A stretch of 61,196 bases of DNA from Burkholderiales bacterium (GTDB lineage Bacteria; Pseudomonadota; Gammaproteobacteria; Burkholderiales; Usitatibacteraceae), in contig JBBRFJ010000001.1 in the NCBI GenBank assembly GCA_038224475.1, positions 1-61,196 of the forward strand. Reading direction: 5' to 3'. Under the pieces are notes generated by a model. That model was not told the DNA's origin. It worked only from the letters and a program-made list of their open reading frames with translations, and did no database searches. Below are positions 6,924 through 61,196 of the stretch, piece after piece. The translations under genes and the position numbers were made by a program. Position 1 is the first letter of the stretch, and every line of letters starts with the position of its first letter.

Positions 6924-7105
6924 TTAGGTGCAACCGCCTCTTCGGAGCAGGACTATGAACGCTGGAAAACGTGAAAGTGTTTTTGCCGTATATAAATACG
7001 GCGTTATTCGCATAGGGCTTGATGGCATGCGTTTTTTTCGCGTTTCTTCTGGAATGATAGGGAGGCATAGCGGAATAGTGGGAGACTCTGTGCTGCCTAC
7101 ATTTA

Positions 7106-7112
7106 GTTAAAT
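7106..7112 (+). other. GTTAAAT core at the candidate attI/first-cassette junction
   Basis: It matches GTTRRRY, lies 13 nt before the first cassette ORF, and sits between the intI 5' end and the cassettes. Confidence 0.35.
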
Positions 7113-7118
7113 TGCTAT

Positions 7119-7457
7119 ATGGTTTATCTCGACTGTTCCGGTGTTCGCTTTGGTTCTCAACTTGACGAGAAGCATTTATTTTATTGGGCAGCTGAAATTA
7201 CATGTTTTGTTCGTTGGGAACAAGACATTCTTGTAGTGAAGTCGAGTCGCATTTCTGAAGAGGCATTGCGTGATCTACTAGCCCTGTTTTGGCGGTACAA
7301 CATCCCGATGAAACAGTTGGCACAGTTTCGGAACACGGCCAATGAGGATTGGTTTGCAGCGCCCATCATGTACTGGCACAAAATGGTGTTCGCCTCGCAA
7401 CTTAGCCTGGCGCCCAACGCGGACGGCCCTGAGGGTCGCCGGGTAGCTCCACGTTAA
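7119..7457 (+). CDS. hypothetical protein (cassette 1)
   Basis: 112-aa ORF with no recognisable motif. Its last ~20 codons overlap the attC-like site. Confidence 0.5.
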
Positions 7458-7459
7458 AG
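7395..7459 (+). repeat. attC-like site 1
   Basis: GCAAC at 7397-7401. Stem CCTGGCGCCC (7406-7415) pairs with GGGTCGCCGGG (7433-7443) with one bulge. GTTAAAG core at 7453-7459. Confidence 0.45.
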
Positions 7460-7470
7460 CTCAGACGCCT

Positions 7471-7905
7471 ATGAAAATTCGTCGTCGATTCTGCATTTTC
7501 ATTGTGTTGCTTGCGTTTGTATCGAACATCCATGGACAGCCTTCGGCAGAGTCTAAAGCGGAGAGAAAAATGCAATTTCCCCAAGATGTAAACGGTGACG
7601 TATTCCGACGCATGCAAAAGTCAGGGCTTGATTTTTCAAAATCTCACGATGTTGAGTTTTTCGCGGTCTTTCGCACCGAATCCGAGGCTGATGTCGTAGC
7701 CAAACAGTACTTGGCTGACCACAAATCCGGGAACCGACTGGTCAAAATCGATACGCGACCTGCGAAAAAGGGTGGAATGGAACTGCTCCTTGTCAAGAAT
7801 ATCTCCTTAACTTACGAAGGTGTTACTGCTTTTGAGCGGCGGCTTCTGGAACGGGTGTCGGCACACGACGGCTATTTGGATGGTTGGGGAGTTCTCCAAG
7901 AGTGA
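7471..7905 (+). CDS. RraB-like domain protein with N-terminal signal peptide (cassette 2)
   Basis: Signal-like MKIRRRFCIFIVLLAFVSNIHGQ. The body (DGDVFRRMQKSGLDFSKSHDVEFFAVF...YLDGWGV) resembles the RraB (regulator of RNase E activity B) fold motif ending in YDGWG. Confidence 0.6.
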   Translation: MKIRRRFCIFIVLLAFVSNIHGQPSAESKAERKMQFPQDVNGDVFRRMQKSGLDFSKSHDVEFFAVFRTESEADVVAKQYLADHKSGNRLVKIDTRPAKKGGMELLLVKNISLTYEGVTAFERRLLERVSAHDGYLDGWGVLQE

Positions 7906-7907
7906 AA

Positions 7908-7972
7908 GCTCTAACGCTTCAGTCAACACGGGCGTGCCAACAGCGGCGCGCCCGTTATTTTGGTCGTTGGGC
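7908..7972 (+). repeat. attC-like site 2
   Basis: CTAAC at 7911-7915 and AGTCAAC at 7921-7927. Stem GGGCGTGCC (7930-7938), loop AACAGC, stem GGCGCGCCC (7945-7953). GTTGGGC core at 7966-7972. Confidence 0.55.
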
Positions 7973-7975
7973 ATC

Positions 7976-8401
7976 ATGACGGATGAACACTGTGTGCAAT
8001 GGGATGGAGTGACTGGCATTGTTAGCCCCTGCGCCGATATCTCATTCGTCTACGACCAGCCAGATGAAGTTACGGTCACAATGCATTTCTCATGTGTGAA
8101 AGGTCTTCCCTCTCGTGATCTTGTGTTGAGTTTTAGCGGCGCAATTTCCGCGCGCTGGGAAAGTGAATCATTTGGGCTCAATACACTTCCGGATACGCTG
8201 CCAAAATGTGGGGGCATTGGTTGGGAATCTTGGACATTTCCCTTACTGAAGATCGAAAACTCTTCTTGGCTCAAATTACATGTCGACTGCCATCCTGATG
8301 CTGCAGAAGGTCGAGTGCATTTCGCACTCGTCACAATGAATGACCTTTTTCAGGTTCTGGCTCTACCAACTGTAATCACTAAGTGGATAGACGTAGATTG
8401 A
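7976..8401 (+). CDS. hypothetical protein (cassette 3)
   Basis: Trimmed to the ATG at 7976, 4 nt after the GTTGGGC core. The track ORF start at 7820 would read through attC site 2 and overlap the previous gene. 141 aa, MTDEHCVQWDGV... Confidence 0.55.
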   Translation: MTDEHCVQWDGVTGIVSPCADISFVYDQPDEVTVTMHFSCVKGLPSRDLVLSFSGAISARWESESFGLNTLPDTLPKCGGIGWESWTFPLLKIENSSWLKLHVDCHPDAAEGRVHFALVTMNDLFQVLALPTVITKWIDVD

Positions 8402-8433
8402 TGCTGCAACATTGCGGTCAAAATGGTTCGCTA

Positions 8434-8485
8434 AGCTAACTTGGACGCGCCAACAGCGGCGCGTCCTTTACATTAATCGTTAGAT
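8434..8485 (+). repeat. attC-like site 3
   Basis: AGCTAAC at 8434-8440. Perfect 9-bp stem GGACGCGCC (8443-8451), loop AACAGC, stem GGCGCGTCC (8458-8466). GTTAGAT core at 8479-8485. Confidence 0.55.
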
Positions 8486-8560
8486 TGCTCAATTATGGGT
8501 TGAGTACTTCATTTCACAGGAAACCACGTTGATATTGACGCTCTCGCCAATATTGCCCCA

Positions 8561-8944
8561 GTGCAGGCAGCTACGATCTTCAGAAGAGGCGAGCCACGGC
8601 CTAGTCGACACAACAGTAGGGTCTGCGTAACGTCAGGCTTGAATTTTTTCGTGAGCCGCGCCGACTTCGATGACTTTGAACAACAGCAACAAGATGCGAT
8701 TGCGTTTCTTACTGTCCAGCAAGATGACTTTAAGAAATTGCGTCAATTTGAAGGGGTGACGAGCGTAAGTTTGGATTTTGGCATCGCCATGAGGAATGTA
8801 ATTTCCCAATCGGATCAGTTTCACCCTGAACTCATTTCCCTAATGGCGCCTCTTGGCCTTGCACTTGTGCTGATCCATTACCCATTGGGAAAAAAGAACA
8901 ATGAAGTAAAGCAGTCGCGGCGTGCGCTGCGAAAACCAATCTAA
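8561..8944 (+). CDS. hypothetical protein (cassette 4), start uncertain (GTG)
   Basis: 127-aa ORF. The first canonical start after the in-frame stop at 8501 is the GTG at 8561. No recognised motif. Confidence 0.4.
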   Translation: MQAATIFRRGEPRPSRHNSRVCVTSGLNFFVSRADFDDFEQQQQDAIAFLTVQQDDFKKLRQFEGVTSVSLDFGIAMRNVISQSDQFHPELISLMAPLGLALVLIHYPLGKKNNEVKQSRRALRKPI

Positions 8945-9006
8945 CACGTTCGTCAAAGGCGCTCCCTTTGGTCGCTGGATGGCGCAAAAGCGCGCCACCT
9001 TCAACC
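8939..9006 (+). repeat. degenerate attC-like site 4 (no GTTRRRY core)
   Basis: TCTAAC at 8940-8945. Hairpin CAAAGG-CGCTC-CCTTTG. Palindrome TGGCGC (8980-8985)-AAAAGC-GCGCCA (8992-8997). No downstream GTT core was found. Confidence 0.35.
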
Positions 9007-9549
9007 TCCAAAATAAATAGAATAGGTAGGGTAAGACGCTTTTATTTCCCTGTATTTCGACATAACCAAAAATTCAAACACAAGTACACACGACCCTTTC
9101 AAGCCGCTTTAGTCCCAATCGCCCCGCCAATAGGTCACTTTCACTTTCCGTTTCAAACAACCAAGGCACGCCTTCCTCGATCTGTCGTCTCCTGTCGCGA
9201 CATGCAATGCCCTAAGAGATTTTTCCATCAACAGATGGTGGTGCGACAAGGTGGATCGGCTCGGCAACCCGTAGCGCAGCTGAGATTACTTGGTTGCCGA
9301 TACCGCCGGCGCGATCAAATGAAGGGTTTAAGTCGTTACGTTCTCACGCAGGGCGTCGGCACGCCTTCCAGCCAATCGCTATATCGCGCCATCTAGTGCG
9401 AGATGGATAACGACCATTCGACTAAAACTATCAAGCGCCAATATGCGATATTGCAAGTCTGTGTCAGAAGGTGCACGCACAAGCGCTAGACAAAGACTAA
9501 CATTCGGCATCGACGAAAACGATCGATCAAGGCGCAAAGAGGAATGATC

Positions 9550-32595: not shown

Positions 32596-32771
32596 GTTTT
32601 TATTTTGTGTTTTGGTTGATACTTGATTGCGCTGCGCAAGAGCTGCGTTTGGCAGGCACAGCGCCCCGCAGTCACCGCTTTAATTTGCCCAAATTAGTGA
32701 CTGCTAACTGAGTGGCGGCTGCAATCTCACGCAGCCGCGCAAAAAAATTAGAATTCGTTTATACTTGAACG

Positions 32772-32848
32772 GGTCGAGGGGCGCTGCGATTACACCTTCA
32801 TAGCAATTTAGGTCTAACCAGGCTCGACAAGATCACAACGGCGCCCGC
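32772..32848 (+). promoter_or_regulatory. SAH (S-adenosylhomocysteine) riboswitch aptamer
   Basis: TCGAGGGGCGCTGCGAT ... CCAGGCTCGAC ... AACGGCGCCC matches the remembered SAH-element core (GAGGAGCGCUGCGA / CAGGCUCG / AACGGCGCUC) with a compensatory GGGC/GCCC change. It sits directly upstream of ahcY. Confidence 0.75.
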
Positions 32849-32877
32849 AATCTTGAATGGTTGCGGGCGCTTTTTTT
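32841..32877 (+). terminator. riboswitch expression-platform terminator
   Basis: GCGCCCGCAA (32841-32850) pairs perfectly with TTGCGGGCGC (32861-32870) and is followed by T7. The 5' arm shares nucleotides with the aptamer 3' strand. Confidence 0.8.
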
Positions 32878-32964
32878 CGTCTGCAATTTATTCGCGACGG
32901 AACCGTCAAGCAATTTGCACACATCTATCTCCGCTATCCTGCGGCACACGCTAAGGACAACAAC

Positions 32965-34392
32965 ATGAACGCAATTTTGAAACCGAAAAATCTTATCAAC
33001 AACGATTACTACGTTGCTGATCTAAATCTGGCCGAATGGGGCCGCAAAGAAATTAAAATCGCTGAAACCGAAATGCCGGGTTTGACGATGATTCGCGACG
33101 AATTCGCAGCCGCGCAGCCCCTCAAAGGCGCGCGGGTTACCGGCTCATTGCACATGACGATTCAAACCGCCGTGCTGATCCAAACCCTAGAAGCCTTGGG
33201 CGCGGAAGTGCGCTGGGCATCATGCAATATTTACTCCACACAAGATCATGCTGCAGCGGCCATCGCCGAAGCCGGCACACCGGTATTTGCTTACAAGGGT
33301 GAATCCCTTGAAGAATATTGGGATTTCACGCACCGCATTTTCGAATGGCAAGACGGCGGCTACACGAATATGATTCTGGATGATGGCGGCGATGCAACCT
33401 TGCTGCTGCACATCGGCACTAGAGCCGAAAAAGATTTGTCGGTGCTGGCGAATCCGGGTGCGGAAGAAGAGCGTATTTTGTTCGCCGCGATCAAGGCCAA
33501 ACTACTCAAAGACCCGACATGGTATTCAACACGCCTTGCCAAAATCAAGGGCGTTACTGAAGAGACCACCACCGGCGTGATGCGTTTGTATCAGATGCAC
33601 AAAGACGGCAAGTTGGCGTTCCCGGCAATCAACGTTAATGATTCCGTCACCAAGTCAAAATTTGATAATTTGTATGGCTGCCGCGAATCGCTGGTTGACG
33701 CGATCAAGCGCGCCACCGACGTGATGATCGCGGGTAAGGTTGCCGTGGTCGCGGGTTATGGCGACGTGGGCAAGGGCTCTGCACAAGCACTGCGCGCATT
33801 GTCTGCACAAGTCTGGGTTACGGAAATCGATCCTATCTGTGCGTTGCAAGCTGCCATGGAAGGCTACCGCGTGGTAACGATGGATTACGCCGCGGACAAG
33901 GCTGATATTTTCGTGACCGCGACTGGCAATTACCACATCATCACCTTCGAGCACATGGCGAAAATGAAGAACGAAGCGATCGTTTGTAATATCGGTCACT
34001 TTGATAACGAGATTGATGTTGCCACCATCGAGCAGAAATGTAAGTGGGAAGAGATCAAGCCGCAAGTTGATCACGTGATTTTCCCGGATGGAAAGAAAAT
34101 TACACTGCTGGCAAAAGGTCGCTTGGTCAATCTGGGTTGTGGCACGGGCCACCCCAGCTATGTGATGGCATCATCGTTCGCGAATCAGGTGATCGCGCAA
34201 ATGGAACTATTCGGCAACACCGCGAAATACCCCATCGGCGTTTACACGCTACCGAAGCATCTTGACGAGAAGGTCGCACGCTTGCAACTCACAAAATTGA
34301 ACGCGCAATTGACACAACTGAGCGAAGAGCAGGCTGCTTACATTAATGTGTCGACACAAGGTCCGTATAAGGGCGACACTTATCGTTATTAA
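32965..34392 (+). CDS. ahcY: adenosylhomocysteinase
   Basis: Trimmed to MNAILKPKN...[26 protein letters not shown] with AAGGA upstream. NAD-binding motif [11 protein letters not shown]. Confidence 0.95.
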
Positions 34393-55850: not shown

Positions 55851-57137
55851 TTATGTGACCGCATTTCTGGTCTGAAATTGCACGGCTTTCCATTCATCTT
55901 TGTTCATGACCTCGCGCAATGTGTTGACAGCATCCCACACATCCACAAAACGGGTGTAAAGCGGCGTAAACCCAAAGCGTAAGAGATCAGGTTGGCGGAA
56001 ATCGCCGATCACGTGGCGCGCAATCAGCGCCTGCATAATCGCATATGCATGCGGATGCGCAAATGAAAGGTGGCTTGCGCGCGCCGCGTGCTCGCGTGGC
56101 GATACGCAGGCAAAGCCAAATGCTGCGCAATGTTCGTCCATCAATTGCCAGAACAGATCGCTCAGCGCCAATGATTTTTGCCGCAACGCTACCATCGGGA
56201 CGTTATCAAAGGTATCCAGTCCGCAGTCCAGCGCCGCCATCGAGATGGCTGAATGAGTGCCGCACTAAAATCGGTTCATATTTGCTGCGGGCTGATAATT
56301 CGTCGCAAAATCAAATGGCGCGGCATGGCCCAGCCAGCCTGCGAGCGGTGTCGACATTTGCGTTTGAAGCGATGTGGTCACATACAAATAGGCTGGCGCA
56401 CCCGGTCCACCGTTCAGATATTTATAACCGCAGCCCACCGCAAACTGAGCGCCGGATTCTGCCAGCGCAACCGGCAACGCGCCCGCACTGTGGCTGAGGT
56501 CCCAGATTATGTGGGAACCTGCGGCTTTTGCGTGATGGTTCAGCGCGGACATATTGTGAACATGCCCTGTGCGGTAATCAACCTGAGTGATCAACGCTGC
56601 CGCAACCGTATTATCAAGCGCATGCTCGATCTGATCGGACTCAACTAACTTCAATTGGTATTTATTTTCAAGCAGCTCGTTCAAACCTTGCGCGATGTAC
56701 AAGTCTGTGGGGAAATTCCCGCGTTCCGAAATGATTACACGGCGGTTTTCGTCGTCCGCCACGCGCGGCAGTTTTAGGACGGCCGCGAGCAGCTTAAAAA
56801 TATTGATCGACGTGGAATCGGCAACGATGACCTCATGGGTATGGGCACCGATTAACGCGGCTATCTTTGCGCCGATTTTTTGCGGTAGGTTAATCCAGTC
56901 ATGCTGATTCCACGATCGAATCAAATCACGCCCCCATTGATGCTCAACCACGTGGGCAATATGTGCCGATGTTGTGCGGGGTAACGCACCCAGCGAATTT
57001 CCGTCAAGGTAGACGGTGTCGTCGGTCAAACTGAACCTCGCGCGAGCATGGCTTAATACGTCTTGGTCGTCGAGCTGAATGCAGGCTTCACGTGTCATCG
57101 CTGCCGCGGCGGAGAATTTGGAAATCGTTTTCATCAT
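55851..57137 (-). pseudogene. kynU: kynureninase interrupted by one in-frame TAG
   Basis: The track ORFs 56265-57137 (290 aa) and 55851-56240 (129 aa) are in the same frame. Reading through the TAG at 56267-56265 gives ...AANMNRF*CGTHSAISMAALDCGLDTF..., a continuous kynureninase of about 428 codons. The PLP-lysine region YKYLNGGPGA is in the N-terminal part. Confidence 0.8.
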
Positions 57138-57186
57138 TAATTATCGCAGAGCGGCCAGTCTCTCTGACCTCGGTTACTATTATTCT

Positions 57187-57795
57187 ATGAATCTAAATCA
57201 TTTAAACGTTTCGTGTCCCGCTGAGCGGCATGCCGAGCATACGGCTTTGCAAGCTTCGCCGTGGGTGCTGCGGTTTGCTGAAATGATTCCAGAGCAGAGC
57301 GCTGAGCGGAGCCGCATTAGCGGTGATGTGCTGGATACCGCCGCAGCACAGGTTTTGGATATCGCCGCAGGGGCGGGCCGCCATTCACGCGCGCTGGCCG
57401 CGATGGGTCATACCGTGGTCGCGGTAGATCGTGACGTGGACGGATTTGTTGAGCCACCTCCAGGAGTTACCTTATTTACGGCCGACCTAGAATTAAACCC
57501 GTGGCCGTTTGCAAATCAGCAATTTGTCGCGGTGGTGGTGACCAATTATCTGTATCGTCCGTTGTTGCCGCTCATTGTTGCGGCAATCGCCCCTGACGGG
57601 ATACTGATTTACGAAACATTCGCGATTGGTAATGAACAGTTCGGACGGCCTGCGCGCGCTGAATTTCTGCTTCAGCCTGAAGAGCTGCTGAACGCGGTGC
57701 GAGGTGAATTGCAGGTCATCGCGTATGAAAATGTGTTTGTCCGGGAACCCAAGCCTGCGATGGTTCAACGTATCGCGGCGATTCGTAAAAATTGA
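57187..57795 (+). CDS. class I SAM-dependent methyltransferase
   Basis: Trimmed to MNLNHLN. Motif I VLDIAAGAGRH and the acidic loop VVAVD. Confidence 0.75.
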   Translation: MNLNHLNVSCPAERHAEHTALQASPWVLRFAEMIPEQSAERSRISGDVLDTAAAQVLDIAAGAGRHSRALAAMGHTVVAVDRDVDGFVEPPPGVTLFTADLELNPWPFANQQFVAVVVTNYLYRPLLPLIVAAIAPDGILIYETFAIGNEQFGRPARAEFLLQPEELLNAVRGELQVIAYENVFVREPKPAMVQRIAAIRKN

Positions 57796-57968
57796 AATGG
57801 CACTAAAAACCCTATATCTAGAGCGGTCTTCGGCAAATATGTGCTTGGAAAAGGCCGCCAATGCTTGAGGTTGTGAATCAATTTTTGCTGCGCCTAAGCT
57901 TGGACGCACTTTAAACGTAAATCAGAGGCAGATTAAATGCGGCCGATGAACGCCTTCGCGGAAGCAGT

Positions 57969-58622
57969 TTAGGTCAACATATTTCTAAATTTATTCATGA
58001 ACTGCTCCGCCTCCTCTGCGCTGGAGTATTTCGTCAAAATATCGCGCAGTCGCATCATCATGACGACGAGGTCTTCAACGGTTTCGGCTGAGGTGATTTT
58101 TGGCGCAATCAGTTCAGCATCTTTTTTCATGCGAACGCGCAAATCGGCAAGGATGTAGGCCTTGACTGTTTCTAGCGGGAAATATCCACCCGCGCGCGCG
58201 GCGGGTTGGGCGGTCGTTCGCGCAGCAGTTTGCGCAACAGGCGGCGGTTCAATCGGTCTCTCCGCTTGTTGCTGGGGTTGACGCGGCAACGGTAACGACA
58301 CGACGTTGCCTGTAAACGCGGCGACGTTCGAAAAGGGATTTTTTTCCGGCGCACCATCGTGTTCAAGAGCCGCATTGGGATCGCGCTTAAGCGCAATGAA
58401 ACCATCTGCAAATAGACTATCGATCGCATCACGCGTGCTGCCTAAAACGTGTGTCAACTCGATCAGTTGGTCAAGCGTGCGCACGCCATCTACAAACACC
58501 AGAAATCGTCGCAGTTGTGGATGCAATATTTGCGTCTCTTGCGCGATTTCTTCATAGCCGCGCTGTGTTTTTCTAAACACGTTATCGCCAGCAAATTCTA
58601 CTCCTGTCGCTTTTGTGTTCAT
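57969..58622 (-). CDS. hypothetical protein
   Basis: 217 aa with folded N- and C-terminal segments separated by a Pro/Gln/Ala-rich linker. Divergent from the rhodopsin gene. Confidence 0.55.
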   Translation of the reverse strand: MNTKATGVEFAGDNVFRKTQRGYEEIAQETQILHPQLRRFLVFVDGVRTLDQLIELTHVLGSTRDAIDSLFADGFIALKRDPNAALEHDGAPEKNPFSNVAAFTGNVVSLPLPRQPQQQAERPIEPPPVAQTAARTTAQPAARAGGYFPLETVKAYILADLRVRMKKDAELIAPKITSAETVEDLVVMMMRLRDILTKYSSAEEAEQFMNKFRNMLT

Positions 58623-58986
58623 AAGAATTCCTGTGTCGGCTGGGTTCGAGGTCGGGCTTTATGATCAAAAATATTGCATTAGCGTGCCGACCACATCGGT
58701 TAAGTAGGCTGTGTTGTGCGGGTTAACCACAAAGAAACCTGGATTGTTTGGTTCGGCACGGCTTTTGTCTGCGTACGGCCATAAAATTAAGCACGGCCTC
58801 GCACAACTTGACGTTAAAGGCTAACACGGTCTCGCTTCTGGGTTTGCGGAGATTTTTGCGACATTTTGAAAAGTTAATTCGCTCTATCGCGCAATGCTAT
58901 CCTCCCTGAAGGCTAAAAGGCGATAAAAATCGGTCGAGCCTGCGCAGTGCATTCAAGAGTCACTTTTTTCACCCTGTGGAGGCAAC

Positions 58987-59721
58987 ATGAGTTTGACATT
59001 GCTGACCCAATACTCGTTCTTGATGACGTTCATCGCGTTCTGTGCTGCAACATTTTATTTCGTGCTGGAACGGGACTCGCTGCCCGCTGAATTTCGCTCA
59101 ACTGCCTCAATCGCCGCGTGTTATCTGGGTATCGGGGCGATTAACTATTCTCTGATGCTCGGATATGTGCCTCGAGATGGCATGATGGAATCCTTGGTAA
59201 AGTTTCCAACTGAATTACGCTATGTCGACTGGCTTTTGACCACTCCGCTGATGTTGATCAAATTTCCCAGCTTGCTTGGCTCGGCCAGAAATCGTCTGTT
59301 ATTGGTGTCATTGATCGTGGCGGATGTGATCATGATTTCGACAGGTTATGCGGCTGAAGTGTTTTTCCGGCAGGGCGCAATTCATGAGGCATGGGCACTT
59401 TTTATCGCGGGTTGTGTTGCCTTTTTACTGATTCTTTACTTACTTTACGTTGTGGTCACAGCTGCTCAAGAGGACACGCTGGCACCCATTTCTGCGGGTC
59501 TGGACAATATGAAGCGATTCATATTGATCGGGTGGTCAATTTACCCTGTGTGTTTTATTCTAATCATGATTTCGAATTCACCCGAGATGAAGGTCACACG
59601 TGAGTTGTTATTCAATATTGCAGATGCGGTCAACAAAATTGGCCTCGCCATGATCGCGGTTTCAGCGGCTCGTTCGGTAGCCCGAGACCGCGAAATTAAG
59701 GACGCAATGGCGAGTCTATAA
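58987..59721 (+). CDS. microbial (type 1) rhodopsin with a D-T-K helix-C motif
   Basis: Seven hydrophobic helices. Helix C RYVDWLLTTPLMLIK (R78, D81, T85, K92). Helix F GWSIYP. Helix G DAVNK with the Schiff-base Lys217 and Asp213. GGAGG RBS 6 nt upstream. Confidence 0.9.
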   Translation: MSLTLLTQYSFLMTFIAFCAATFYFVLERDSLPAEFRSTASIAACYLGIGAINYSLMLGYVPRDGMMESLVKFPTELRYVDWLLTTPLMLIKFPSLLGSARNRLLLVSLIVADVIMISTGYAAEVFFRQGAIHEAWALFIAGCVAFLLILYLLYVVVTAAQEDTLAPISAGLDNMKRFILIGWSIYPVCFILIMISNSPEMKVTRELLFNIADAVNKIGLAMIAVSAARSVARDREIKDAMASL

Positions 59722-60001
59722 ATTTGAATTCTCTATGAGTGCGTTCGTTGCACTGCGGAACCCAATCACGCCGCACCGGTCTTAACAGTAGTGGTTTTAT
59801 AGACGACCTTATAGACAATTCGCGCTCTAGGATTAGCTAAACCCATGCTGCCATGCCAGGCCCGTATAAAACCGGCAGCCAAATGCGGAATGCGTTCGGC
59901 GCTGTGGATAGGTTAAAATGCGCCCTTGCCTATTTTTCTGTGATTGCACCTACGCGGTCGCTGATTGTTCCTGACATCTTCTTCATGGTTACTTAAAGCT
60001 T

Positions 60002-60898
60002 ATGTTGACCGGTAGTCTCGTTGCCATTGTTACGCCCATGCTGCCCGACGGCGAGCTTGATTATCCGCGTCTTAAATCATTGATTGATTGGCACGTGGCC
60101 GAGGGCACGGACGGTATCGTCATCGTTGGTACCACCGGCGAATCTGCGACTGTTGATTTTGATGAACATTTCTCGCTAATCAAAGCTGCCGTAGAATTTG
60201 CGGCGAAACGTGTACCGGTGATTGCGGGTGCAGGAGCCAATTCAACCAAAGAGGCCGTGAACCTGACGGAGTTTTCAAAGCGCGCTGGCGCGGATTATGC
60301 TCTTTCGGTCGTGCCGTATTACAACAAGCCGACGCAAGAGGGGATGTACCAGCATTTCCGCACGATTGCGGAAGCCGTCGATATTCCCGTCATTCTGTAT
60401 AACGTGCCGGGTCGCACAGTCGCAGATTTAAGCGGCGATACCACCATCCGGCTGGCGCAGATTCCGAACATTGTCGGCATCAAAGATGCGACCGCCAATA
60501 TGGCGCGTGGCGCTGACTTGCTGATGCGCGCGCCGAAAGATTTCGCTATTTACAGCGGTGAAGATGTATCGACGCTCGCGCTGATGTTTTTAGGCGCGCA
60601 TGGCACAATTTCGGTGACCGCTAACGTGGCACCTCGGCTGATGCACGAAATGTGCGTGGCTGCGCTGAACGGCGAGCGTGCCAAGGCAATCGAAATCAAC
60701 AACCGGCTCATGGGCCTGCATAATCAGTTGTTCCTGGAACCCAATCCAATTCCTGCAAAATGGGCGCTCAATCAAATGGGCCTCATTGAAACGGGTATCC
60801 GTCTTCCGCTTCTACCGTTCGAATCAAAGTTTCACGCGCAGTTGCGTGAAGCGATGAGCGCGGCTGGCATTCATGATCTTGTAAAGGAATCGGCTTGA
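60002..60898 (+). CDS. dapA: 4-hydroxy-tetrahydrodipicolinate synthase
   Basis: [24 protein letters not shown] and the active-site Lys context GIKDAT. Confidence 0.95.
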
Positions 60899-60900
60899 AT

Positions 60901-61196
60901 ATGTCGAAATTGTCGAAGTTTATTGTTCCCAAAGCCGTTCGCATATGCGGTCTGAGCGTCGTGGCGGCACTCACCGTATCCGGCTGTACGATGTTTGGCT
61001 TATTTGGCGCAAACAAGAATACTGATTACCGCGCGCAAGGCGGCAAAATCGCCTCTCTGGAAGTACCGCCTGACCTTACCTCGCCCACGGTGGATGATCG
61101 TTTTGTCATTCCCGATGGGAAAGCAACGACTTATTCACAATACAGTCAGCGCGGCACAGGCAGTACCACAAGCGCCCCAAGCAGCAGTACTGTTCA
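60901..61196 (+). CDS. bamC: outer membrane protein assembly factor BamC-like lipoprotein (5' part)
   Basis: ATG 2 nt after the dapA stop, lipobox LTVSGC, LEVPPDLT motif, and the conserved dapA-bamC order. The gene runs off the window end. Confidence 0.7.
   Translation, partial: MSKLSKFIVPKAVRICGLSVVAALTVSGCTMFGLFGANKNTDYRAQGGKIASLEVPPDLTSPTVDDRFVIPDGKATTYSQYSQRGTGSTTSAPSSSTV

Follow-up and report, generated by a model that had tools for sequence, protein, structure and literature searches.

A predicted lysine-donor rhodopsin of the ESR branch with a conserved cytoplasmic tail and an adjoining partner gene in an uncultured betaproteobacterium

The DNA stretch examined here, referred to as the window, comprises 61,196 nucleotides (contig JBBRFJ010000001.1 of the Burkholderiales bacterium assembly GCA_038224475.1) and carries at 58987..59721, on the forward strand, a coding sequence of 244 codons plus stop for a type-1 rhodopsin with the residue triad D81-T85-K92. 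Judged from its sequence, the product is a rhodopsin of the branch that includes Exiguobacterium sibiricum rhodopsin (ESR), with retinal binding predicted from the fold and the pocket; to the features of this branch it appears to add an invariant tyrosine (Tyr46), a conserved cytoplasmic tail and a partner gene, while the characteristic histidine of helix B is lacking. The explanation that we favour, to which roughly an even chance is given by analogy with ESR, is that the protein is a proton pump of the ESR type with a lysine as proton donor and a changed counterion, which would work together with a partner protein bound to its tail and would obtain its retinal from elsewhere.

A sequence-only reading of this DNA had proposed a 244-residue rhodopsin gene with a likeness to ESR, and both proposals hold, ESR being the closest characterised relative. 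The open reading frame (ORF) is present with exactly the limits given above, preceded by a Shine-Dalgarno sequence, GGAGG, at 58978-58982, 4 nt ahead of the ATG, and the Pfam family Bac_rhodopsin (PF01036) covers residues 6-229 with E = 2.4e-38, while a search of NCBIfam matched no model. Among all PDB sequences, ESR (4HYJ) ranks top with 43% identity and E = 1.2e-55, ahead by 30 orders of magnitude of the next match, green proteorhodopsin (GPR), at 1e-25. The HMMER alignment with ESR contains no gaps across residues 3-101, which leaves the register of helices A to C unambiguous. In this alignment GAINY of the window protein stands opposite AAIHY of ESR, placing Asn53 at the position of ESR His57, and RYVDWLLTTPLMLIKFP stands opposite RYIDWLVTTPLLLVKFP, equating D81, T85 and K92 with ESR D85, T89 and K96; further along, ADAVNK faces ADLTNK, by which D213 and K217 correspond to ESR D221 and K225. 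The residue register was unchanged in a MAFFT alignment of 108 sequences that included bacteriorhodopsin (BR) and GPR. The three residue assignments made earlier, namely the D-T-K triad with K92 at the donor position, Asn53 in place of the helix-B histidine and Lys217 as the Schiff-base lysine (aligned with BR K216 as well as ESR K225), are thus borne out by the alignments. An AlphaFold2 model computed with 28 homologues as input has seven helices, with a predicted local distance difference test score (pLDDT) of 92.5 and a predicted template-modelling score of 0.88. In a Foldseek search of PDB structures it returned 308 rhodopsin matches at E <= 0.001, the best of which was 4HYJ_A (template-modelling scores of 0.90 and 0.93, root-mean-square deviation of 1.6 Å, 231 columns). 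A shift of register that would bring a histidine or a carboxylate to the key sites, the alternative named beforehand, is excluded by the gap-free alignment together with the superposition on 4HYJ.

The residues expected of a proton pump are largely in place. Asn53 is encoded by AAC at 59143..59145 (forward strand), at the position held by His57 in ESR, His75 in GPR and Met56 in BR. The core of helix C, D81...T85...M89...K92 (59227..59262, forward strand), would supply the proton acceptor, the threonine, a tuning residue of the green type and the lysine at the donor position, the codon of which was read directly as AAA at 59260-59262. Helix G carries D213-A-V-N216-K217 (59623..59637, forward strand), that is, the aspartate of the second counterion, an asparagine of the proteorhodopsin and ESR type and the Schiff-base lysine (AAA, 59635-59637), and its aspartate, asparagine and lysine are invariant throughout the clade described below. 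The retinal pocket is intact and of the ESR and proteorhodopsin type (W82, T86, M116, I117, G120, F139, G142, C143 and F146), with W183, Y186, P187, F190 and N216 also kept. All of the following ESR residues involved in pumping have their counterparts in the window protein: R82 (R78), D85 (D81), T89 (T85), K96 (K92), E130 (E124), E214 (E206), D221 (D213) and K225 (K217), the roles in ESR being those given in PMC11155677. R78 and E124 do not vary, and R205-E206 is conserved. Judged by these residues alone, the protein would be competent for pumping, with only the histidine missing. M89 at the spectral-tuning site suggests green absorption according to the Leu/Met versus Gln rule, and GPR has a residue of the same green type, L105, at this site.

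When compared to ESR, the likeness therefore extends over the best sequence and structure match, the D-T-K triad, the pocket, the Arg82-Glu130 pair (R78 and E124), Glu214 (E206) and the Asp, Asn and Lys of helix G. The differences are the replacement of His57 by Asn53 and of Val50 by the invariant Tyr46, an additional conserved cytoplasmic tail of 19 residues, a proteobacterial host, a partner gene that is missing from all four Exiguobacterium loci examined, and a phylogenetic position as sister to the Exiguobacterium group instead of within it. With the proteorhodopsin/xanthorhodopsin superclade the protein shares the fold, the helix C pattern RYxDW..T and the NK of helix G at 25-30% identity, but it is without the helix-B histidine and has Lys instead of Glu as donor; true rhodopsins of that superclade, with the histidine and a D-T-E triad (His+DTE), are encoded beside several clade members as distinct paralogues. 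The DTG and DTS ‘mirror’ proteorhodopsins of Pseudomonas, Pantoea and Sphingomonas are likewise non-marine, proteobacterial and endowed with a non-carboxylate donor (PMC8927995, PMC10154332), but their donor is Gly or Ser, they form a different clade and none occurs among the close matches.

Relatives of the window protein were collected by a word-indexed search of 5.8 billion proteins, which gave 29 rhodopsin homologues, and by an exhaustive search of 1.84 billion cluster representatives, which gave 14 clusters at E <= 1e-30 and 120 at E <= 1e-10. Sought by its exact sequence, the window protein had no entry in the contig index, and its relatives were analysed instead. Among the matches listed from a scan of species-representative genomes, the loci are each approximately 38-46% identical, with none above 46%, and they belong to Polaromonas, Comamonadaceae, other Burkholderiales, Methylophilaceae, Competibacteraceae, Wenzhouxiangellaceae, Silanimonas, Exiguobacterium, Verrucomicrobia and Planctomycetes. 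The sampled relatives derive largely from metagenomes of glacier-fed streams and lakes, as far as can be told from the record names GFS_, BUSI22 and LIUY22 and from PMC9021309. D-T-K rhodopsins of the ESR branch beyond the Firmicutes have earlier been noted for Planctomycetes and Verrucomicrobia (bioRxiv 10.1101/2022.08.01.502354). The present clade has at least 36 members among the sequences sampled, all of them from Beta- and Gammaproteobacteria, and in neighbour-joining trees, the distance-based method being the only one used, these 36 tail-bearing sequences are monophyletic, with the ESR/Exiguobacterium group as their sister. The bootstrap values, 131/200 and, with the tail columns removed, 107/200 (54-65%), give this grouping moderate support, and the phylogenetic check proposed earlier thus places the protein in the ESR branch. 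The literature searched holds no account of D-T-K rhodopsins from Burkholderiales or Polaromonas, of the tail motif or of the partner family; as far as this incomplete coverage shows, the clade with its partner gene is previously undescribed, although an earlier description is possible.

Three traits mark the clade at the protein level. At the helix-B position its 36 members have N, M or I and in no case His: Asn occurs in all 18 close-to-moderate relatives, down to 51% identity, and Met in the Polaromonas-type group. In the other sampled D-T-K rhodopsins the same position is held by His (23), Asn (10), Ser (5), Met (1) or Ala (1). Since Asn, Met and other residues recur across the ESR branch, Asn53 is no oddity of the window gene but a recurrent natural state. 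Tyr46 (TAT, 59122..59124, forward strand), at the position of BR Val49 and ESR Val50, is invariant in 36 of 36 clade members, while 57 of the 64 other sequences compared have I or V, with V in ESR, BR and GPR; the residue is located on the path from the donor to the Schiff base, in the cytoplasmic half-channel. The third trait is the cytoplasmic tail at the C-terminus, residues 226-244 (SAARSVARDREIKDAMASL; 59662..59718, forward strand), which is conserved and is predicted to extend helix G, with a single helix spanning residues 199-243 of the AlphaFold2 model. All 36 partner-linked sequences end in the motif [RK][DE]xx[IL][KR]x[AQD][MLI]xx[LI]-end at a fixed length (in short form RDxxIKDAMxxL-end), the window version being ARDREIKDAMASL; the motif is absent from ESR, GPR, BR and the rhodopsins of Verrucomicrobia and Planctomycetes, the tails of which are unrelated. 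A separate D-T-K group outside the clade (P0021, P0025, P0101 and L031, the last from a metagenome-assembled genome (MAG) of Myxococcota) also has Asn in helix B and Tyr at position 46; its tails are long and acidic, without the motif of the clade, and the search for a partner gene there was negative.

Adjoining the rhodopsin gene and divergent from it, at 57969..58622 on the reverse strand, lies a gene for a protein of 217 residues, here termed the partner, which was traced with a hidden Markov model (HMM) of its homologues, by its joint loss with the rhodopsin and by an AlphaFold2 model. Its 45 homologues are all unnamed and many of them share contigs with rhodopsin relatives. No family was found for it in Pfam at E <= 10 or in NCBIfam, and nothing significant in the PDB, either by sequence profile (best E = 1.1) or by fold (Foldseek, best E = 0.29); the weak Foldseek leads, at E ~0.3 or worse, are winged-helix-type domains of NPRL2/3, the RRE domain of TruD, and KorA. 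The model has a mean pLDDT of 66 and shows an N-domain (residues 14-77, beta-alpha4-beta, pLDDT ~75-80), a disordered linker rich in Q and P (residues 80-144) and a four-helix C-domain (residues 149-215, pLDDT 85-89). At this medium confidence, the N-domain may be winged-helix-like, which amounts to a weak structural hint.

The linkage between partner and rhodopsin is constant. In every clade locus inspected, from at least eight lineages, the partner HMM matches the ORF adjoining the rhodopsin gene. This applies to the window-clade loci L001, L083, L086 and L088, to P0015 (L099), P0017 (L101) and P0019 (L097), to eleven loci of Polaromonas, Comamonadaceae and Burkholderiales, and to those of Methylophilaceae (L022), Competibacteraceae (L016), Wenzhouxiangellaceae (L014) and, weakly, Silanimonas (L004). 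No match was obtained beside 17 other rhodopsins of the ESR branch (Exiguobacterium, Verrucomicrobia, Planctomycetes, Myxococcota, L003 and L018), and tail, Tyr46 and partner gene coincide in the same set of loci. When the search was started in reverse, from two independently chosen partner matches (P0095 and P0083), the order partner, rhodopsin, crtY, blh and dapA was again recovered. In the Polaromonas-type loci the partner lies on the same strand immediately upstream of the rhodopsin gene, while in the window clade the two genes are divergent. The earlier description of the window gene as an orphan is consequently apt only in that the 61 kb hold no genes for retinal synthesis; a divergent partner gene adjoins it. 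The partner also occurs as two to four tandem paralogues upstream of the rhodopsin gene (L008, 7476-9918; L006, L007, L009-L013, L015 and L017) and in two copies in L097 (4504-5768); the distal tandem copies are far more divergent, and one short form has approximately 110-130 residues.

The favoured explanation, a lysine-donor pump assisted by its partner, is modelled on ESR. In that protein Lys96 is unprotonated and first accepts a proton from the cytoplasm, which it then hands to the Schiff base (PMC8387761), while His57 is salt-bridged to Asp85 and lowers its pKa, which is 2.3 in the wild type versus 6.3 in the H57M variant (PMC11155677). The proposed release path leads over Asp85, His57, water and Glu214, and Arg82 pairs with Glu130 (PMC11155677). 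In the window protein, light would isomerise the retinal on K217, the Schiff-base proton would pass to D81, and K92 would take up a cytoplasmic proton before reprotonating the Schiff base, with the proton leaving through the conserved network of R78, E124 and E206. The net outcome would be outward proton pumping, probably with green absorption owing to M89. Given that Asn53 replaces the pKa-lowering histidine of ESR, a higher pKa of D81 than in ESR is expected and pumping would be limited to near-neutral or alkaline pH, a reasonable supposition by analogy with ESR H57M. The partner would most likely bind the cytoplasmic tail and thereby regulate or assist the rhodopsin. In most relatives crtY-blh or crtEIBY follows the rhodopsin gene directly, for which reason the family is taken to use retinal; as crtY-blh is deleted downstream of the window gene, the holoprotein would depend on retinal that is synthesised by genes at another place in the genome or taken up from the community. 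The pump function, the raised pKa of D81, the docking of the partner on the tail and the origin of the retinal are all inferred from sequence, synteny and analogy.

Several observations weigh against this explanation. The donor residue is variable in the clade (K in 30 members, N in 3, M in 2 and T in 1), and the bulky, invariant Tyr46 is placed within the reprotonation channel. At least eight loci from four lineages have a His+DTE pump beside the clade member, so that a second plain pump would seem redundant, a point in favour of some other role. In the genomes nearest to the window the rhodopsin and its partner have been deleted, which indicates that the cassette is dispensable and may be leaving here too. 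Finally, mutation of the corresponding histidine in GPR shifts the pKa of the acceptor in the direction opposite to that seen in ESR, so the direction of the effect of Asn53 is uncertain.

The strongest competitor, which we regard as possible but clearly the less probable account, is that the rhodopsin is a photosensor and the adjoining soluble protein its transducer, with proton transfer being incidental. Light-driven movement on the cytoplasmic side, in helix G and the tail, would alter the binding of the partner, and the winged-helix-like N-domain would act on DNA or on another protein. Several of the findings above fit such a role: the strict association of rhodopsin and partner in both directions and their joint loss, a cytoplasmic tail that is specific to the clade and absent from ESR and other pumps, a donor position not fixed to lysine, an invariant tyrosine in the cytoplasmic channel, tandem paralogues of the partner and, in several lineages, a canonical His+DTE pump placed in tandem with the clade member, together with crt genes. 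Anabaena sensory rhodopsin with its transducer ASRT is a precedent for a rhodopsin working with a soluble transducer. As in that system and in the CryoRhodopsins, the rhodopsin is constantly paired with a small soluble protein of unknown family. The CryoRhodopsins offer a further precedent, as their genes are co-transcribed with those of putative transducers, small soluble proteins for which docking on the elongated, conserved C-terminus of the rhodopsin is predicted (PMC12227055), and they too come from cold freshwater or glacier sources. They differ in being actinobacterial, with an arginine signature in helix B and blue-shifted states lasting minutes, and no sequence relationship with the window clade was found; the window partner, in turn, differs in architecture, with two domains joined by a linker, and it has no Pfam match at E <= 10, which covers ASRT as well if Pfam includes a model for it. 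The likeness is therefore treated as an analogy of working mode, and membership is not claimed.

Against a sensory role stand the conservation of all ESR pumping residues except His57, with K92 kept in 30 of 36 members, and the many loci in which the clade member is the sole rhodopsin, lying beside crtY-blh as is typical of pump cassettes. The partner shows no recognisable signalling or DNA-binding family and its fold matches are non-significant (best Foldseek E = 0.29), the winged-helix assignment coming from a model with a pLDDT of ~75-80; neither Pfam and NCBIfam nor the sequences and folds of the PDB showed homology to the known transducers ASRT and Htr/MCP. A broader version, in which the clade would constitute a new photosensory module whose tail helix signals to a two-domain partner family controlling the neighbouring pump and carotenoid or retinal genes, is likewise regarded as possible but less probable. 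If the photosensory account were true, the window would represent a stripped-down version consisting of sensor and transducer only.

Whichever account is preferred, the clade is of wider interest. The classic case that breaks the ‘carboxyl rule’ for proton donors is ESR, whose activity over a wide range of pH depends centrally on the His57-Asp85 pair. The clade provides a natural series in which the lysine donor is kept while Asn, Met or Ile stands in for the histidine, and which can serve to test the contribution of the histidine. An unannotated partner, a matching tail and a frequently neighbouring pump form a pattern of the kind that preceded the recognition of new rhodopsin functions in the flotillin-associated rhodopsins and the CryoRhodopsins. 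Some of the relatives belong to genera of which members can be cultivated, Polaromonas among them, and this makes the hypothesis experimentally accessible. The locus also records a stepwise decay of a phototrophy cassette among close relatives.

This decay becomes apparent when the locus is compared between related betaproteobacteria, where the gene order is purN, purM, a transporter of the AI-2E type, nadA, kynU, a methyltransferase gene (in some genomes only), partner, rhodopsin, a variable segment, dapA and bamC. In the window the right-hand anchor of the cassette, dapA (4-hydroxy-tetrahydrodipicolinate synthase; Pfam DHDPS, 7.8e-101), lies at 60002..60898 on the forward strand. The variable segment between rhodopsin and dapA contains crtY-blh in L001, L086 and L102, crtB-crtY-blh in L104, and a fasciclin gene, a second rhodopsin, crtI, crtY and blh in L088, while the Polaromonas locus L008 has four partner paralogues followed by the tail-bearing rhodopsin, a second rhodopsin and crtE-crtI-crtB-crtY. 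The second rhodopsin is a canonical His+DTE protein in all eight loci where one was seen (L007-L009, L017, L022, L030, L088 and L099), and the tandem with such a pump and crt genes occurs in Polaromonas, Comamonadaceae, Methylophilaceae, L088 and L099. In the window and in L083, its twin at 97% identity, only a spacer of 280 bp (59722..60001) separates rhodopsin and dapA; it marks a deletion junction at the site of crtY-blh in relatives, as the window realigns with L086 only from 59868 and with L001 only from 59888. None of crtE, crtI, crtB, crtY and blh was found anywhere in the 61-kb window, and a tblastn search of the spacer and the remaining window for crtY or blh remnants was likewise negative (E > 0.3).

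A further stage is seen in L090-L096, with dapA genes 97-98% identical to that of the window, which are without intact rhodopsin and partner. BLAST detects in such rhodopsin-less genomes fragments corresponding to partner residues 3-116 and rhodopsin residues 191-244, joined by a deletion equivalent to window positions ~58618-59592, and the rhodopsin fragment leads into the same spacer devoid of crtY-blh as in the window. The fused fragments lie at 6255-6732 in L090, 3991-4649 in L093, where the partner fragment is partly duplicated, and 6306-6726 in L094; some of them appear among the ORF calls as short frames, 71 and 114 residues long. The order of events read from these sequences would be a full cassette, then the loss of retinal synthesis (the state of the window) and then the joint loss of rhodopsin and partner.

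It could accordingly be asked whether the window rhodopsin is itself a non-functional leftover without chromophore, drifting towards deletion after the loss of crtY-blh. Such an account would draw on the missing retinal and carotenoid genes, on the sister genomes that keep only fragments on the same spacer, on the in-frame TAG of the adjoining kynU and on the ratio of non-synonymous to synonymous substitution (dN/dS) of 0.42 for the partner. We consider it improbable. The ORF is intact, with a good Shine-Dalgarno sequence, and since the split from L083, which is also without crtY-blh, the rhodopsin gene has a dN/dS of 0.14 (17 synonymous and 8 non-synonymous differences), compared with 0.014 for dapA. 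Changes at clade-invariant sites number six in the window rhodopsin, within the range of 0-9 found in the relatives that keep crtY-blh. Relaxed selection in the window lineage is therefore unsupported, although the counts are small, and the gene is under purifying selection and not degenerating. The search for retinal genes covered the 61-kb window, and blh may lie elsewhere in the genome; use of exogenous retinal has also been proposed for other rhodopsin bearers without blh, the Saccharibacteria and the acI Actinobacteria.

With regard to the host, the earlier assignment to the proteobacteria agrees with the best named dapA relatives, which are Betaproteobacteria MAGs at 81-84% identity, and with the gene order of close relatives, in which dapA is followed by bamC, the gene of an outer-membrane assembly lipoprotein; the host is thus an uncultured betaproteobacterium. 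The gene had also been described as more AT-rich than its neighbours, and its GC content is indeed lower, at 47.6% compared with 53.6% for the whole window. This is due to the first and second codon positions, that is, to a hydrophobic amino-acid composition, while the GC content at third codon positions (GC3) is 54.3%, inside the range of 52-64% of the flanking genes, and for this reason the low GC does not signal a foreign origin. A recent horizontal transfer from Exiguobacterium or other Firmicutes, to which ESR as the closest characterised protein and the 6-point deficit in GC might lead, is very improbable indeed, as the Exiguobacterium proteins are only 41-43% identical, the nearest relatives (70-97%) stand in syntenic betaproteobacterial loci, GC3 is in the range of the neighbours, and the proteobacterial clade is monophyletic with ESR as sister by neighbour-joining; a Firmicute origin argued from AT-richness was rejected on the same grounds of normal GC3 and syntenic relatives. 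The rhodopsin cassette is native to the betaproteobacterial lineage of the window and is decaying in it.

Some minor observations concern the surroundings of the two genes. The divergent intergenic region (58623..58986) contains, besides the Shine-Dalgarno sequence at its right-hand end, a conserved block, AATGCTATCCTCC (58893-58905), approximately 80 bp ahead of the rhodopsin start, which is nearly invariant in an alignment of five genomes, the rest being poorly conserved, and which occurs once in the window. A scan of the region for consensus sigma-70 promoters found none; the block may represent an extended -10 element (TGnTATCCT) or the site of a regulator. When window positions 57000-61196 are compared with L086, L001 and L088, divergence is highest at the cassette: with L086, protein identity is 97% for dapA (dS 0.45), 85% for the rhodopsin (dS saturated), 73% for the methyltransferase and ~54% for the partner. 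This suggests either old recombining alleles or a fast-evolving island within a conserved backbone.

To the left of the cassette, kynU (55851-57137, reverse strand) has an in-frame TAG at 56265-56267, where the 94%-identical orthologue of L083 has TTG (Leu); the stop divides the gene into ORFs of 290 and 129 residues and represents either a nonsense mutation, making it a pseudogene, or an assembly or sequencing error of the MAG. In the P0019 locus (L097) no carotenoid genes were found within 6 kb, and the rhodopsin gene is followed at 6929-9100 by a gene for an aromatic amino-acid lyase of 723 residues (Pfam Lyase_aromatic, 2.7e-134). Farther away in the window, Rfam detects an S-adenosyl-L-homocysteine (SAH) riboswitch (RF01057) at 32770-32853 on the forward strand, at 48.1 bits, the gathering score being 37; it lies directly ahead of an S-adenosyl-L-homocysteine hydrolase ORF (32857-34392; AdoHcyase, 4e-141), which is an ordinary arrangement.

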